This document shows positions 1 to 56,691 of a stretch of DNA of 64,000 bases, one piece after another; the first letter of the stretch is position 1; each line of letters opens with the position of its first letter. The notes under the pieces are model-generated. The model made no database searches. It had not been told where the DNA came from and saw nothing but the letters and a program-made list of their open reading frames with translations. Source of the stretch: Candidatus Latescibacterota bacterium (GTDB lineage Bacteria > Krumholzibacteriota > Krumholzibacteriia > WVZY01). The stretch is taken from NCBI GenBank assembly GCA_963791045.1, contig CAWBQK010000005.1, forward strand, positions 17,484-81,483, in the 5' to 3' direction. The translations under genes were made by a program, and so were the position numbers.

Positions 1-262
1 CCGCCACGGCGGCGTCTACAGCATTCCCACCACGGCGAAGAACATCGGCGCCGACCGCCGATGCAATCGAGTCGGCCGACACGACGACAGCGTTGTCTAT
101 GACGGCGGTTTTGCCCGGCGCGCTAACTTCGACGGACGACGCCACGGGCTCTTCCTGCCGGACGTCCGAACATCCCGGCGCGAGGGTTCCCGCAAAAACA
201 AAAATCGCCACGGCAAGAACGGCCGCGGCGAGAGACATGGGGTTTATGTGTTTGTTTCTCAT
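1..262 (-). CDS. ggt: gamma-glutamyltransferase, N-terminal part (runs off window)
   Basis: Manual translation MRNKHINPMSLAAAVLAVAIFVFAGTLAPGC...AVVVSADSIASAVGADVLRRGGNAVDAAVA; GGNAVDAAVA is the GGT N-terminal motif; signal/lipoprotein-like leader. Confidence 0.85.
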   Translation of the reverse strand, partial: MRNKHINPMSLAAAVLAVAIFVFAGTLAPGCSDVRQEEPVASSVEVSAPGKTAVIDNAVVVSADSIASAVGADVLRRGGNAVDAAVA

Positions 263-297: not shown

Positions 298-325
298 GAC
301 CGGCCGGGTGGCGCCCCAAAACAAC

Positions 326-360
326 AAAAAAACGGCGAGTGACACATGGCCACTCGCCGT
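326..360 (-). terminator. intrinsic terminator closing the ArsR/selenoprotein unit
   Basis: ACGGCGAGTG-loop-CACTCGCCGT 10-bp stem followed by a T-run on the minus strand. Confidence 0.85.
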
Positions 361-385
361 ACCCCTGAGCCAACAGGGCTCTATC

Positions 386-413
386 AAACTCTCGGCGGAC
401 ACGCCGCCGGTTT
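386..413 (-). promoter_or_regulatory. candidate bacterial SECIS element (FmdB-like gene)
   Basis: AAAC-CGGCGG-CGUGU-CCGCCG-AGA-GUUU; loop begins 20 nt after UGA with G at loop position 2. Confidence 0.6.
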
Positions 414-621
414 ACCAGATGCCTCAGGTGGAGCCGGCGCACTGCGGGCCGGCCGACGGACAACTCGCCTCGGACTGTCCACCCTTGGCGAACGTACTGA
501 ACATAATCTTGCCTTCTCCCCCGCAATCGGGGCACGCGATCGGTTCTTCGCGATCGGCCATGTTGCGAAGTTCAAAAAACTCACCTTCGCATTTTTCACA
601 TTTGTATTCGTACAACGGCAT
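412..621 (-). CDS. FmdB-family zinc-ribbon protein, probable selenoprotein (TGA 426-424 read as Sec; stops at 424 otherwise)
   Basis: MPLYEYKCEKC...CPDCG is the FmdB signature; C-terminus CAGST-TGA-GIW-TAA; SECIS-like hairpin follows the TGA. Confidence 0.8.
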
Positions 622-647
622 GGTTACCTTCCCTGTTTTTCTTTTGA

Positions 648-1010
648 TCAGCACATCCCGTTCGCGCGTCTCGCTCGTTCGAGATTCGCGATCTCTTCCC
701 ATGTATATCGATTGTCGGTTGTCACGTTTTCTTTTGCGCATAACGAATCCATAATCTGCGTAAGCGCCGGGTCGGACAGCGAGAAAACGACTTCGACGCC
801 GTTTCGCTCGGCCCTGACCAGTCCTTCGGAACGAAGCACCTTGAGGTGCTGCGCCACCGATGACTGGGGAACCCCCAACGTCTCCGCTATAAATGTCTGG
901 GTGCACGGCTGGTTGCGAAGCCCGCACACCATCTCGAGCCGAAGCGGGTGCGACAGCGCCTTGAGCACGCCGGCCGCACGTTGGAATTTATCTTTCAATG
1001 AATCGCTCAT
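648..1010 (-). CDS. ArsR/SmtB-family transcriptional regulator (BigR/SqrR-like Cys pair)
   Basis: LKALSHPLRLEMVC...QSSVAQHLKVLRSEGLVRAERNG HTH signature; Cys29 and Cys91. Confidence 0.9.
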   Translation of the reverse strand: MSDSLKDKFQRAAGVLKALSHPLRLEMVCGLRNQPCTQTFIAETLGVPQSSVAQHLKVLRSEGLVRAERNGVEVVFSLSDPALTQIMDSLCAKENVTTDNRYTWEEIANLERARRANGMC

Positions 1011-1177
1011 CGCGAGTCCTCTTCCCGCTTTTTTGTTTTCTCATCCGGCCCGACCGGCCGGTCACATGAAGCCGTTGCTCAGGTCGGGACGCCGAGCCGC
1101 GGGAGAACCCATACAATGAGGATCATGTATACGGCGATGCCCACGGCGGCGAAGCCAAACGTTTTTAGCGCTTCCAT
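1007..1177 (-). CDS. small single-TM membrane protein, probable selenoprotein (56 aa, Sec33)
   Basis: MEALKTFGFAAVGIAVYMILIVWVLPRLGVPT-TGA-ATASCDRPVGPDEKTKKREEDSR*; the read-through frame ends in an ATGA overlap with the ArsR start; not in the ORF track. Confidence 0.7.
1041..1069 (-). promoter_or_regulatory. candidate bacterial SECIS element (small membrane protein)
   Basis: UCAU-GUGA-CCGGCC-GGUCG-GGCCGG-AUGA; loop starts 23 nt after UGA and begins with GG. Confidence 0.65.
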
Positions 1178-1223
1178 CTCGTCAACCACATCCCTAACTT
1201 GTTAAAAATCAAACATAATTACT

Positions 1224-1265
1224 TTATCGTTGTATTATGATAATACAAACCAGCGAATCTGTCAA
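1224..1265 (-). promoter_or_regulatory. sigma70 promoter with overlapping palindromic operator
   Basis: TTGACA(1265-1260)-17bp-TATCAT(1242-1237); perfect 9-1-9 inverted repeat TTGTATTAT-G-ATAATACAA at 1230-1248 covers the -10. Confidence 0.8.
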
Positions 1266-1306: not shown

Positions 1307-2548
1307 CTATTCTTCCTCGGCGCCGAAAAACACACGCTCGAGGAACTGCACCGAATAGGGCTGTTTCTCCAGCTCATTGTAGGAGAATAGCGAGTAACCT
1401 ATTACATTTTCGTGCCTTAGGAGTGACACCGAATATCCGAGATATCGATCGCGGCCGTCGTATACGGGGAGCCCCAGGATATACCGTGCGGGGCTGATCA
1501 TTCGGCTAATCCGGGTCGTGAGCGCCACCAATTCGCCGGGTTCGTAGGTATAGGCCATCGGAACGACAAAATCGACCAGGTCGTCCTGGATCCATTTGAC
1601 CCAGTTCTGCCCCTTCTCTACCCGGGCGCGTTCCGCCTCGGGCACAACGGCGGCCGAAAGCGCAACATCCCCGATCGCAGCCCGTATCGAGCGGATGAGG
1701 GAATCGACCTGCGCGGACCGCCACTCGACGAACACACTGTCGAGAAACGCCGCCGTCCCAGGCTTCTCGAGCCACGCGCCCGCCGGATCGCCGGCAACAG
1801 CGGGGGTGGACGGCAAGAACTCGAACGGGTCGACGCCGTAACGCAGGGCAAAGGCCGTCCTCTGGTCCTCGCTGTAGTCGAAGCGGTTGTTGGGGTAACG
1901 GACGTAGTCGAGATGGATTCCATCGACGGGGTAGCGTTCGACGATCTCGGCGATGACGGCGGTCGTATGAGCGCGGACCCCTGCGAAGCCCGGCGACACA
2001 AAGTAGCCCGCCATGTTCTCACCGAGCCACGCGCTGAGCGGCTTCTCATCCATGCGAACACCATCGCGGTCCGCCATGAGCCACTCGGGATGCTCGCTGA
2101 CAATGTGATTCGGCGGCGGAGACGCTTTGGGATCCGACCACACGTAGTACGTGTTGATCCACGCGTGGACGGCAATCCCCGCCTGGTGGCATCGCCGGAG
2201 CATATAATCAAACGGATCGAAATCATCGATCGGCCGTCCGAGCTTCTGCCCTTCCGGCTCGAGCGACGACCGGTAGTACGCATCACCTCGCCCCCGCACC
2301 TGGACGAACAGGAGATGAAACCGCGCCCGCGTCGCATAGTCGACGGCAAGGTCTACATCTTCCTTTGAACTAAGCGAGTATCGAACAACCCACGCGGCTC
2401 GTATCTCGTCCTTCGGCACGACGGGCGAGTTAAGGAGGAATGTCTCCAGATACGCCCCCCGCCCCTGTGCTTTCGACAAGCAAGGGAGCGTCAATAGGAC
2501 CAATGTTACGATGATGCAGGTTCTCGACAACATATGATTAGTATGCAT
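1307..2548 (-). CDS. secreted glycoside hydrolase-like family 10 protein (DUF187/YddW-like)
   Basis: Signal peptide; EIRAAWV, FVQVRGRGDAYY, VHAWIN, YPVDGIHLDYVRYP motifs. Confidence 0.85.
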   Translation of the reverse strand: MHTNHMLSRTCIIVTLVLLTLPCLSKAQGRGAYLETFLLNSPVVPKDEIRAAWVVRYSLSSKEDVDLAVDYATRARFHLLFVQVRGRGDAYYRSSLEPEGQKLGRPIDDFDPFDYMLRRCHQAGIAVHAWINTYYVWSDPKASPPPNHIVSEHPEWLMADRDGVRMDEKPLSAWLGENMAGYFVSPGFAGVRAHTTAVIAEIVERYPVDGIHLDYVRYPNNRFDYSEDQRTAFALRYGVDPFEFLPSTPAVAGDPAGAWLEKPGTAAFLDSVFVEWRSAQVDSLIRSIRAAIGDVALSAAVVPEAERARVEKGQNWVKWIQDDLVDFVVPMAYTYEPGELVALTTRISRMISPARYILGLPVYDGRDRYLGYSVSLLRHENVIGYSLFSYNELEKQPYSVQFLERVFFGAEEE

Positions 2549-54798: not shown

Positions 54799-56691
54799 TT
54801 ATCCAAGAAAATCGTCGAAACGGGGGCCCTTGCGACGGACATTTCCGTCGCGGACGGTGGCTTTCGCTTGGTCCAGGTGCTCGAGCAGCGGGATGGCGTG
54901 CTTGCGGGTGATCCCGAACATGTCTTTGAAATCACCCACCGTGAGATCGGAATTGTTTTCATACCAAGCGGTTAACTTTTCTAGGCACGAGACGAGAACA
55001 TCATGATGGACGTAGCCCTCGCCCCCGATTTTGACGATTCTGCGGTCTTCGATCAGAAGACCCAGCGCGTCGGAAAGAGCGCTCTTTGCCCGCCAGGCCC
55101 GTTCGAGCTCGGCCGGTTTTGAAAAAAGCAGCCCCAGTTTTTTTATCTCGATCTCGAGGTTTTTCAGATCCGCGGCCGCGTCTTCGGGGAGTGCGACGTC
55201 TTTCGAACCCGTTCTCACGCGGTTGTCCTTTATGAAAACGGGGCGTGACCTGGCGATGGTATCGAGGACGCTGTTAAAGAGCGGAGTTGTTTGTGGGAAC
55301 CGGACTTTTTGTTTGAGTTCCTCTTTGTCGATCCCGTATCTCAACGGGTGCTTTTTGACATACTCGGAGGCAAGCGATTCGACGCTGCCCGCCAGGTCCG
55401 CGAGAACCCTCGCGTGAAAAAGAACTCCGTCGACGACGGCAATGCGTTCATCGTCGACAAGCGCCTGGACGATGTCGGCTTCCTGGCCTTTTTTGTTCAA
55501 GCCGCGCAGGCCCGCCGCTTCGACCGCCTGGAGAAGCTGATCTTTGGGATCGCCTTTTTCGAGAAGCCGGAGGCGCTCGATGACCGCCGCGTCCCGCCGC
55601 CGGTGACGTTTCGCGGCGGGGTCAATGATGCGGCCGCCGCCGAGCACCATCGTCGGAGAATATTTTCTAACGACAAAGAAATCGCCGCGGCTGCCGACGA
55701 TAGGCGCTTCGAGTTGAAGCTGGACAAAAGCGTTCTCGCCCGAGCGCAGTTCGCTGCTCTCGAGGAGCTGGACCCGGCCCATGACTTCCCGCGCGCCGTG
55801 ATGGATGCGGACACGCTCGCGGTGTTTGACTTCGAACGCCGCGTAGTCAGCAACGTGCATGCGCGCGTCGAAAAGATAACTGACAATAAATGCCGACGGA
55901 GTGACGAGCATGTCGCCGCGCGAGACTCCGTCAAGTTTGGCGCCCTGGAGCGCTATGGCGAGCCGCTCGCCCGCGTAGCCTTCGTTGCGCTTTCCGCCAA
56001 AACTCTGAACTTCGCGGACACGCACGGACTTCTTTGCGGGAAGCAGTTCGAGGGAGTCGCCGACGGTGACGGTCCCTGAATACCCGCTTCCCGTTACGAC
56101 CACGCCGATTCCCTGTATGTGAAACACGCGATCGACGGCGAGACGAAAGGGCCCGGTGGTGTCGCGCTCTTTGACCTCGAGCGCGAGCGCAAGGAGTGTC
56201 TTTTTGAGTTCTTCAATTCCGTCGCCGGTTTTGGCGGACGTTTCAACGATGGGAGCGCCATCGAGAAAGGTGCCCTTAACAAGATCTACTGCTTCATCTT
56301 TGACAATCTCGATCATGTCTTCGCTGGCAATATCTGTTTTTGTAACGGCGATGATACCGGACGCGATATCGAGCGAGGCGAGGACTTCGAGGTGTTCTTT
56401 GGTTTGCGGCATGACACCCTCGTCCGCGGCGATAACGAGCATGGCGAGATCGATACCGCCGGCGCCGGCGACCATGTGTTTGACGAACTTCTCGTGGCCG
56501 GGAACGTCGACGACACCGATCATGGTGCCATCGTCGAGATTCAATGGCGCGAACCCGAGCTCGATGGAGATACCGCGCTCTTTTTCTTCTTTGAGCCGAT
56601 CGGTATCCACACCGGTCAATCGACCGACGAGCTCCGTCTTGCCATGATCCACATGACCGGCAGTCCCAAGTATCAATCGTCGTTTTGGCAT
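54799..56691 (-). CDS. selB: selenocysteine-specific elongation factor SelB
   Basis: [36 protein letters not shown]-terminal winged helix ITRKHAIPLLEHLD. Confidence 0.96.
   Translation of the reverse strand: MPKRRLILGTAGHVDHGKTELVGRLTGVDTDRLKEEKERGISIELGFAPLNLDDGTMIGVVDVPGHEKFVKHMVAGAGGIDLAMLVIAADEGVMPQTKEHLEVLASLDIASGIIAVTKTDIASEDMIEIVKDEAVDLVKGTFLDGAPIVETSAKTGDGIEELKKTLLALALEVKERDTTGPFRLAVDRVFHIQGIGVVVTGSGYSGTVTVGDSLELLPAKKSVRVREVQSFGGKRNEGYAGERLAIALQGAKLDGVSRGDMLVTPSAFIVSYLFDARMHVADYAAFEVKHRERVRIHHGAREVMGRVQLLESSELRSGENAFVQLQLEAPIVGSRGDFFVVRKYSPTMVLGGGRIIDPAAKRHRRRDAAVIERLRLLEKGDPKDQLLQAVEAAGLRGLNKKGQEADIVQALVDDERIAVVDGVLFHARVLADLAGSVESLASEYVKKHPLRYGIDKEELKQKVRFPQTTPLFNSVLDTIARSRPVFIKDNRVRTGSKDVALPEDAAADLKNLEIEIKKLGLLFSKPAELERAWRAKSALSDALGLLIEDRRIVKIGGEGYVHHDVLVSCLEKLTAWYENNSDLTVGDFKDMFGITRKHAIPLLEHLDQAKATVRDGNVRRKGPRFDDFLG

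Follow-up and report, generated by a model that had tools for sequence, protein, structure and literature searches.

A three-gene operon in a 64,000-nucleotide stretch of DNA from Candidatus Latescibacterota bacterium (GenBank assembly GCA_963791045.1, contig CAWBQK010000005.1, positions 17,484 to 81,483 of the forward strand; this whole stretch is called the window from here on, and positions are counted from its first letter) very probably encodes two selenoproteins, one on each side of a gene for an ArsR/SmtB-family repressor. Gene 1 specifies a small membrane protein and gene 3 an FmdB-type zinc ribbon, and comparison with their relatives leaves us highly confident that both in-frame TGAs encode selenocysteine (Sec), each gene reading through one UGA. 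The most valuable result is that gene 1 appears to belong to a widespread family of Sec/Cys small membrane proteins that is absent from the catalogues we searched. An earlier note, made from the letters of the window, had put forward both genes as hidden selenoprotein genes, each with a hairpin resembling a selenocysteine insertion sequence (SECIS) after its TGA. For gene 1 this is borne out by the conserved TGA, by coding conservation beyond it, by Cys homologues and by the hairpins of relatives, and for gene 3 by the near-C-terminal TGA and the hairpin found in its relatives; the genome also has a complete Sec machinery. The elements concerned, with the evidence for each, are as follows.

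1007..1177, minus strand: gene 1 (conserved TGA, homologues).
1079..1081, minus strand: TGA of gene 1, predicted to be read as Sec (conserved TGA, aligned Cys, RNA-library contig).
1045..1061, minus strand: SECIS-like hairpin 1, CCGGCC-GGUCG-GGCCGG, a stem of 6 base pairs with loop GGUCG (folding, relatives, covariation).
648..1010, minus strand: ArsR/SmtB-family repressor, 120 residues (family models, orthologues).
412..621, minus strand: gene 3, an FmdB-type zinc ribbon (family models, relatives).
424..426, minus strand: TGA of gene 3, four codons before TAA, predicted to be read as Sec (near-C-terminal TGA in relatives, RNA-library contig).
393..409, minus strand: SECIS-like hairpin 2, CGGCGG-CGUGU-CCGCCG, a stem of 6 base pairs with loop CGUGU (folding, relatives).

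Gene 1 is read as MEALKTFGFAAVGIAVYMILIVWVLPRLGVPT-TGA-ATASCDRPVGPDEKTKKREEDSR-TGA, a product of 56 residues from the ATG at 1177, with one membrane helix and a charged tail. The starts of its orthologues correspond to this ATG (M-E-x-L-K), the alternative GTG at 1189 being possible. At the recoding site ACC-TGA (1084-1079) is followed by ATAS-C, that is U-x4-C, within the motif LPRLGVPT-U-ATAS-C. Relatives were sought by reading through the stops in all six frames of 100 related genomes and of the window's own genome, and 30 loci were examined. Each of the best 31 matches in these 101 genomes has exactly one TGA. The codon stands directly after ...(V/I)PT or a close variant in all 30 loci, and a Cys lies 3-5 residues past it in 28 of the 30, with the spacing U-x4-C in 26 of these (exceptions L040 and L047). 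The threonine before the TGA, to which the earlier note had drawn attention, is present at both sites in the window but is conserved in gene 1 only.

A profile built from 28 gene-1 sequences (A1) and searched against 1.84 billion cluster representatives retrieved 1009 proteins at E ≤ 0.001, 36 of them at E ≤ 1e-10. We counted the residues at the Sec position by a motif parse of the best 150 of these 1009 representatives. Opposite the TGA stands Cys in 117, Trp in 16, Gly in 2 and Ser, Lys, Leu or Arg in 5; a further 5 stop exactly at ...GVPT, and the 5 left unparsed have, by eye, Cys (3) or Trp (2). The x4-C spacing is kept in 97 of the 117 Cys forms, and Cys at this position is, as read from the alignment, the classical Cys/Sec pairing. 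The Trp and Gly forms (18 of 150, including P0002, P0007, P0021, P0026, P0028, P0031, P0033 and P0058) are apparently TGAs translated under genetic codes 4 or 25 by the gene caller, and Sec genes may mislead the genetic-code calls made for metagenome-assembled genomes, or vice versa. These forms and the 5 truncated ones agree with the expectation, stated in the earlier note, that standard gene callers miss or truncate such genes. In one representative, P0078 (208 residues), a Cys form of gene 1 continues in a single open frame into a complete thioredoxin (TIGR01068, 105.7 bits); this fusion may be a functional hint or a gene-calling artefact.

The family extends well beyond the class to which the window belongs. 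A scan for the pattern W[VI]LPRLGVP (alignment A2), with one genome per species, gave 238 stretches, of which 205 were confirmed and 80 retained; these 80 of 205 loci, among them four that duplicate loci of the class (L082=L028, L088=L026, L125=L029, L126=L030), make up what we call the other-phyla set. All 80 have TGA at the Sec site of gene 1, and they represent at least eight phyla besides the window's own. By record title they are mostly Acidobacteriota, with Fibrobacteraceae, Myxococcota, 'delta proteobacteria', Thermodesulfobacteriota, Rokubacteria, Binatia, Armatimonadota, Chloroflexota, Verrucomicrobiia, Isosphaeraceae (Planctomycetota), Arcobacter and Burkholderiales also represented. 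Metagenome-assembled genomes supply most of the hits of the scan, but some records bear the genus names Paludibaculum, Acidipila and Geothermobacter. Past the TGA, the frame and the Cys codon five codons on are kept in 72 of 74 other-phyla loci while the nucleotides vary.

A hairpin soon after the UGA, with a G at the start of its apical loop, is what criteria of the bSECISearch type look for. Hairpin 1 begins 20 nucleotides after the gene-1 UGA, and its loop begins about 26 nucleotides after it. A stem of 5-9 base pairs is found in all 29 gene-1 homologues compared, with the loop starting 21-29 nucleotides after the UGA and with stems that vary by lineage (CCGGCC/GGCCGG, AUACCGG/CCGGUAU, CUCGAUC/GAUCGGG, UCCGCCC/GGGCGGA). 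The hairpin score exceeds the mean of the sequence's own 200 dinucleotide shuffles in 29 of 29 (11.4 against 6.0 on average), single shuffles reaching the real score in 7.5% of cases. The shuffle mean is likewise beaten in 73 of 74 other-phyla loci, where the loop starts at +26 in 45 and has G as its first base in 62.

We also examined covariation in an alignment of 73 distinct gene-1 sequences from the UGA onward; it has no gaps, so that the codons, rather than any fitted structure, determine it. Over a helix of 8 base pairs (columns 19-26 with 30-37), 77.6% of the cells are paired, against 63.8% in shuffles (0 of 500 reach the real value) and 25-48% when the partner is slid by 1-3 columns. 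All 8 pairs show changes on both sides, and the covariation score is 0.366 against 0.180. Reading the helix off the consensus somewhat favours it, but the slid and shuffled controls still fall far below.

In Pfam and NCBIfam at E ≤ 1, no family was found for gene 1, for six homologues or for seven Cys forms (chance-level rows aside). A word-index protein search with gene 1 gave zero candidates, the family surfacing only by profile search, and the ESM Atlas, queried with a Cys form, gave just a 'hypothetical protein' cluster at 0.88. Neither gene 1 nor gene 3 matches the selenoprotein models of Pfam and NCBIfam. Table 1 of a 2026 review lists 119 prokaryotic selenoprotein families or subfamilies (PMC13188914), and a membrane peptide with a GVPT-U or U-x4-C motif is not among the 119; the tail motif of gene 3 is missing from the list as well. 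For the 'hypothetical proteins DG, DW and DF' of deep-Sep (PMC12013277) the same table gives NCBIfam models, and none of these matches gene 1 at E ≤ 1. The Tso/Sao selenoproteins, as presented in that review, resemble the present system in that an operon holds more than one selenoprotein gene and that small selenoproteins defined by their motifs go with an ArsR/SmtB-type regulator. Their motifs (LULAxC, NEPxGxxU and others) differ from GVPT-U-x4-C, and their models match neither gene 1 nor gene 3 at E ≤ 1. The table's mercury-transport selenoproteins (PF02411) are, like gene 1, small membrane proteins with a Cys/Sec motif, and PF02411 gives no match for gene 1 or its Cys homologues at E ≤ 1. 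In the literature on FmdB, small transmembrane and zinc-ribbon selenoproteins we found neither form described, the families of Haft and Tolstoy (2025) being compared via their NCBIfam models and the review table; a Campylobacter Ribo-seq study mentions SelW and Cj0916c only.

Gene 3, preceded by the ribosome-binding site GGGAAGG, is read as MPLYEYKCEKCEGEFFELRNMADREEPIACPDCGGEGKIMFSTFAKGGQSEASCPSAGPQCAGST-TGA-GIW-TAA, from the ATG at 621 to the TAA at 414-412, and specifies 69 residues. An N-terminal zinc ribbon with two CxxC motifs is followed by a Gly/Ser/Pro-rich tail that ends in C-AGST-U-GIW. The protein scores 57 bits with TIGR02605 (cut-off 31.3) and 48.6 bits with PF09723 (cut-off 34.4), and C8, C11, C30 and C33 are invariant in 28 gene-3 sequences (alignment A3). 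In the FmdB genes that adjoin gene 1, a TGA lies 1-5 codons before the stop in 29 of 29 cases, with a linker rich in Gly, Ser and Pro and a Cys ahead of it; representative tails read ...C-GHAGFG-U-AH, ...C-APSGGFG-U-NPFR and ...C-AGPT-U-GI. The spacing from Cys to Sec ranges from 4 to 11 in these relatives, which means that the C-x4-U seen in the window does not characterise the family. Of the mirror-image arrangement seen by the earlier note, U-x4-C in gene 1 facing C-x4-U in gene 3, both halves are in the window but only the first is conserved. Ten further best-scoring FmdB genes of the class are also Sec-tailed (L058, L060, L061, L063-L066, L072, L076 and L079); in nine of the ten this survey recognised no gene 1 within 1.5 kb, and the locus in L060 is cut by a contig end. 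Among five genomes checked in other phyla, one has a Sec-tailed FmdB (L165:1500-1685, plus strand, from a Bryobacteraceae metagenome-assembled genome, ending ...GSRFS-TGA-R-stop), from which we conclude that the form occurs in Acidobacteriota; others have FmdB proteins with Cys-rich tails such as ...GGGGCCGGGCSCH.

Hairpin 2 begins 17 nucleotides after the gene-3 UGA and lies wholly behind the TAA stop, in the 3' untranslated region. In 28 of 28 gene-3 homologues the UGA is followed by a stem of 5 or more base pairs, and every one of the 28 scores above its shuffles (14.1 against 8.2). The loops are mostly GUC or CGUGA and start 17-26 nucleotides after the UGA in 22 of the 28 and 37-42 nucleotides after it in the other six, which belong to one family in which the strongest hairpin doubles as a terminator and smaller hairpins lie between. 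In this family (L026, L027, L029, L030, L033, L036) a G+C stem of 9-11 base pairs follows the TGA, and a T run comes next in five of them (L029 shows no evident one); this stem could serve both as a terminator and as part of the recoding signal.

Selenoproteins of the FmdB family are already on record. As far as the sources cover the motif, one was predicted from Global Ocean Sampling data with CxxU (PMC2398784), a 2022 review gives U/CxxU (PMC9312934), and Table 1 of the 2026 review lists UxxU with 2 Sec (PMC13188914). Gene 3 resembles this published form in belonging to TIGR02605 / Zn_ribbon_8, in being small and in having many Cys-only relatives, and differs from it, as the form is given there, in keeping both CxxC motifs (four Cys) and in placing a single Sec in a flexible tail. 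Some gene-3 relatives end in ...U-x-x-TGA, and an overlap with the published form is possible there, the comparison with the 2008 alignment resting on its text. Two other models were considered: NF041211 (glutaredoxin-like) matches only another contig of the genome and NF041197 (CxxC_Se_CxxC) nothing on the window's contig, and neither is among the models found for 7 gene-3 homologues at E ≤ 1.

The genome is equipped to decode UGA as Sec. Its assembly (21 contigs, 81% complete) contains selA (460.5 bits), selB, selD (373 bits, with one in-frame TGA within the gene) and tRNA-Sec (66.1 bits, at C18:158792-158887), all above their curated cut-offs, which completes the set of which the earlier note had seen only selB, in the window itself:

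~54835-56673, minus strand: selB, Sec-specific elongation factor (373.7 bits, cut-off 242.25; window coordinates converted from G000:C5:72318-74156).

Since ArsR and many other genes of this genome end in TGA, the codon is not reassigned. About 700 nucleotides downstream of the tRNA-Sec gene lies a translation-GTPase-like match with one in-frame TGA (G000:C18:159590-160189; L007/L013). On another contig a glutaredoxin-like open reading frame, also with one in-frame TGA (G000:C2:76036-76233; L161), scores 43.3 bits with NF041211 (gluta_UXX_star_2; cut-off 100) and may be one more selenoprotein gene.

Both TGAs are bridged by contigs assembled from public RNA libraries. Logan contigs of four public runs were mapped on positions 300-1300. 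One RNA library yields a contig of 361 nucleotides that matches 378-738 with one difference and bridges the gene-3 TGA, and a contig of 180 nucleotides, from another RNA library of that study, covers 937-1116 with one difference and bridges the gene-1 TGA. A third, of 732 nucleotides and from an RNA library of a different study, matches 470-1168 with 34 differences (about 95% identity), taking in gene 1, ArsR and the greater part of gene 3. The RNA-library contigs, from two studies, show no listed difference at the TGA positions. As such libraries may contain DNA and a contig is not one transcript, we count these contigs only against assembly error and as a weak hint of expression; stretches of 300-1300 that no contig covers carry no weight either way.

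The gene pair travels together within the class. Of the 30 class loci, 29 (all but L047) have an FmdB gene downstream of gene 1 in the same orientation, and the adjacent pair spans five of the nine families coded, with gaps of 0-117 nucleotides where no ArsR intervenes. A profile made from seven ArsR orthologues was run over all six-frame open reading frames of 110 loci. In the window's family it places an ArsR between gene 1 and FmdB at 8 loci (190-222 bits). Three other families account for 11 loci more, where a more divergent ArsR (33-45 bits) immediately precedes gene 1 on its strand; Pfam HTH_5 confirmed seven of the 11 at E ≤ 1e-10. The upstream ArsRs have a Cys in helix 2 (LCxGE), and their last helix carries C-x3-C. 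The same three-gene order also recurs in L058, a ninth locus of the window's family; in one family (8 loci) the pair has no ArsR in the 1.5-kb flanks, and an ArsR occurs in only 4 of the 80 other-phyla loci. With ArsR joined to the pair in 19 of 30 class loci and in two gene orders, the synteny that the earlier note could propose from one locus recurs, and it argues for a functional link rather than an inherited neighbourhood.

Outside the class we surveyed, with Pfam, 62 same-strand open reading frames lying within 150 nucleotides of gene 1 in the other-phyla loci. They include DUF302 (8), Usp (4), ABC_tran (4), P-type cation ATPases (3), acetate kinase (2), AcrB (2), glycogen phosphorylase (2), OsmC (1) and DsbD_N (1). 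The DUF302, Usp, OsmC and DsbD_N neighbours have a redox flavour, and we count them in favour of a redox role. DUF302 is the commonest same-strand neighbour (L094, L103, L107, L111, L149, L150, L152, L160), and in L043, a locus of the window's class, it sits between ArsR and gene 1. In L083, L108 and L110 gene 1 lies immediately upstream of a P-type cation ATPase (gap -3 to 48 nucleotides), an arrangement reminiscent of the small single-helix regulators of P-type ATPases.

Around the three genes, inspection of the minus strand of 322-1265 confirmed the remaining parts of the layout described in the earlier note, namely a promoter with a palindrome over its -10, three co-oriented genes and an intrinsic terminator:

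1260..1265, minus strand: -35 hexamer TTGACA (promoter scan).
1237..1242, minus strand: -10 hexamer TATCAT, after a 17-nucleotide spacer (promoter scan).
1230..1248, no strand assigned: perfect 9+1+9 palindrome TTGTATTAT-C-ATAATACAA over the -10, a candidate ArsR operator (inverted-repeat search).
322..360, minus strand: intrinsic terminator, with a stem of 12 base pairs (8 G-C pairs) at 360-332, a loop of 5 and a T run (folding z -4.86).

The TTGACA-17-TATCAT promoter matches the consensus at 11 of 12 positions, and 250-1400 contains 2 promoter-like sites where shuffles lead one to expect 0.6. The arms of the palindrome, TTGTATTAT at 1230-1238 and ATAATACAA at 1240-1248, overlap the -10. Among the eight ArsR-containing loci of the same family, a -35 of the TTGAC type stands upstream of gene 1 in seven (none is obvious in L040), an AT-rich dyad region of the TATTAT(C/T)AT type lies at the equivalent place in all eight, and exact palindromes of at least 7 bases occur upstream of gene 1 in three. 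A comparable upstream dyad was absent from the 4 loci of other families that were inspected. The final TGA of gene 1 (1009-1007) overlaps the ATG of ArsR (1010-1008) as ATGA. An Rfam scan of 280-1320 gave nothing close to any gathering score. The operon is flanked downstream by the start of a gamma-glutamyltranspeptidase gene (2-262, minus strand), whose product acts on glutathione, and upstream by a gene for GHL10 (glycosyl hydrolase-like 10; 1307-2548, minus strand). The former is also found downstream in 3 same-family loci and the latter upstream in 5, and both flanks are probably inherited synteny.

The ArsR protein scores 74.9 bits with NF033788 (cut-off 55) and 42.2 with PF01022 (cut-off 22). 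Its nearest solved structures are NmtR (E 3.6e-13), ArsR 8qkf, YgaV, SqrR (6o8l group, 1.1e-10) and BigR (3pqj, 1.9e-10). Cys29 (EMVCGL) pairs with a Cys of SqrR and YgaV (IMCYL, ILCML) that we take to be their sensing Cys, with its partner in the last helix (di- or tetrasulfide). Cys91 lies beyond the aligned region, about 3 residues off the position of the C-terminal Cys of SqrR by hand count. Cys29, Cys36 and Cys91 are kept in all seven orthologues, and the C-terminal Cys120 in three of the seven. With BigR, SqrR and YgaV the protein shares the winged-helix ArsR fold family and, for SqrR and YgaV, the aligned helix-2 Cys, and a second conserved Cys lies in its last helix; it differs in the offset of that Cys from the SqrR position and in its extra Cys36, and its E-values with SqrR and BigR (1e-10) are no better than that with NmtR.

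Taking the genes, Sec codons, hairpins, synteny and Sec machinery as given, we infer operator binding, topology, partnership and chemistry in the following way. The gene-1 peptide would present LPxxGVPT-Sec-x4-Cys directly after its helix, ahead of the charged tail, and the conserved Arg/Lys around LP(R/K) suggest that this site is on the cytoplasmic face. The gene-3 protein would be cytosolic, with a flexible Gly-rich tail that carries a Cys, and Sec 1-4 residues from the end. ArsR, which would be translationally coupled to gene 1 through the ATGA, most likely represses from the palindrome over the -10, and it would be released upon modification of Cys29 together with Cys91 or Cys36 by a persulfide, an oxidant or a soft metalloid. 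The zinc ribbon could then act as a 'swinging arm' (Cys...Sec) that reaches the Sec-x4-Cys site in the membrane, and the Sec/Cys pairs would form couples of the selenenylsulfide type that trap or reduce reactive sulfur, selenium or oxidants at the inner face of the membrane. We favour a redox or sulfur/selenium-trapping relay because such Sec/Cys pairs, as in thioredoxin reductase and other selenoenzymes, typically cycle through selenenylsulfides. As a whole, the picture of an ArsR-controlled, three-gene Sec operon whose redox couples trap or reduce reactive sulfur, selenium or oxidants at the membrane seems to us rather more probable than its alternatives together, while the specific redox-relay chemistry of the Sec/Cys pairs is offered tentatively, as a possibility somewhat short of even.

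The eukaryotic membrane selenoproteins SELENOK and SELENOS, together with the C-terminal Gly-Cys-Sec-Gly arm of thioredoxin reductase, serve us as a working analogy only, with no sequence relationship expected. The likeness lies in anchoring by one membrane pass, in a Gly-rich disordered tail and in a Sec a few residues from the C-terminus that has a Cys upstream as its partner. Unlike in SELENOK and SELENOS, the anchor and the Sec-tailed arm are two proteins here, and the anchored one has its own Sec beside the helix. An uncatalogued, large single-pass family with the motif GVPT-[Sec/Cys]-x4-Cys, with hundreds of Sec forms in at least eight phyla, might, in this lineage and together with a Sec-armed zinc ribbon and a thiol-sensing ArsR, constitute a new membrane selenol relay that senses or detoxifies reactive species of sulfur or selenium, a functional counterpart in bacteria of SELENOK/SELENOS; this we regard as speculative and rather unlikely.

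Several observations weigh against the picture just drawn. FmdB lies within 1.5 kb downstream of gene 1 in only 7 of the 80 other-phyla loci (all titled Fibrobacteraceae) and was not found in the other 73, in a search that covered those 1.5 kb downstream and not the upstream side or the opposite strand. Conversely, Sec-tailed FmdB occurs without a recognisable gene 1 (within 1.5 kb) in at least eight genomes of the class, and the FmdB of L165 lies about 500 kb from that genome's gene 1, on the same contig. Each protein must therefore also manage with other partners, and the combination, which the earlier note did not recognise as described before, is not tied to this layout. The neighbours of gene 1 are heterogeneous, taking in P-type cation ATPases, parts of ABC and RND efflux systems and acetate kinase. 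A crude count of Lys and Arg flanking the gene-1 helix gave no clear topology, and the Cys counterparts of the gene-3 Sec are generally Cys-rich tails that form no clean aligned column. Folded alone, the two hairpins of the window are insignificant (z -1.06 for the first, -0.98 for the second), and we draw their significance from the comparison with relatives. Among the 34 differences of the 732-nucleotide contig, 5 are not itemised. As for the regulator, the earlier note had called it persulfide-sensor-like; the helix-2 Cys does align with those of SqrR and YgaV, but the protein falls far below the equivalog cut-off for BigR (NF040642, 49.6 against 155 bits), below that for TsoR (NF045707, 41.5 against 115 bits) and also far short of the CmtR model. 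We treat it as a hypothetical persulfide sensor, because it shares only the helix-2 Cys position with SqrR and YgaV, and its three conserved Cys would equally fit an As(III) or metal site.

This last point belongs to the alternative that survives best, in which Sec decoding is the same but the Sec/Cys pairs chelate a soft, thiophilic metal or metalloid such as Hg(II), As(III), Cd(II) or Cu(I) at the membrane and pass it on, ArsR being a classical sensor of metals or metalloids. The closest solved relative of ArsR is indeed a Ni/Co sensor, NmtR, but NmtR has no Cys at the positions of Cys29 and Cys36. The three conserved Cys would suit an As(III) site made of three sulfurs. The cation ATPases (3), RND pumps (2) and ABC ATPases (4) among the 62 neighbouring open reading frames would suit metal handling, but the ATPases carry Cation_ATPase_N / Cation_ATPase_C rather than heavy-metal-associated domains, and no metal-resistance gene lies in the window's operon or beside it, where GHL10 and gamma-glutamyltranspeptidase are found. 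Selenoprotein forms of mercury transport and metal-binding proteins are listed in Table 1 of PMC13188914. We judge metal chelation unlikely, though well worth keeping in view.

Gene 1 might instead be an accessory subunit or regulator of a membrane transporter, its adjacency to FmdB being lineage-specific and without direct interaction. Its place directly upstream of P-type ATPases in three loci and amid ABC or RND parts in several, as well as the 73 of 80 other-phyla loci that lack FmdB in the region searched, speak for this. Yet the pair is adjacent in nearly all class loci and across five of nine families, and any single transporter family accounts for at most 4 of the 62 neighbouring open reading frames, which makes this explanation improbable. 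A further possibility, that the FmdB tail is made by the ribosome as a precursor of the selenobacteriocin type and that gene 1 serves for export or immunity, seems very improbable. In its favour, the description of TIGR02605 likens such low-complexity tails to bacteriocin precursors, and the catalogue of PMC13188914 includes a 'selenobacteriocin' whose motif is SGUG. Against it, no modifying enzyme, protease or exporter was found in the operon or the flanks across the 30 loci, and conservation marks the N-terminal zinc ribbon as a folded domain. Finally, the TGAs could be ordinary stops, leaving a membrane peptide of 32-36 residues and a zinc ribbon of 65 residues, with the conservation downstream due to regulatory hairpins, but while such hairpins could be attenuators (in one family that of gene 3 is also a terminator) and gene callers do stop there, as in the 5 truncated forms, the frame and Cys codon kept past the TGA in 72 of 74 other-phyla loci, the Cys that replaces it in 117 of 150 homologues and continues into the x4-C motif, and the full Sec machinery of the genome make this the least credible explanation of all.

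Because UGA is taken for a stop, annotation systematically loses selenoprotein genes, and gene 1 leaves only fragments or mistranslated forms in protein collections. If gene 1 is what it seems, a very common family of small membrane proteins (1009 clusters, and 205 loci by one narrow pattern) has gone unnamed. The FmdB zinc-ribbon family, for its part, gains a second probable Sec position. The constant Sec/Cys-x4-Cys beside the membrane would be a concrete, testable redox or metal-binding site, and the operon, with promoter, candidate operator, regulator and two Sec targets in about 950 bases, would offer a compact system in which to test it.

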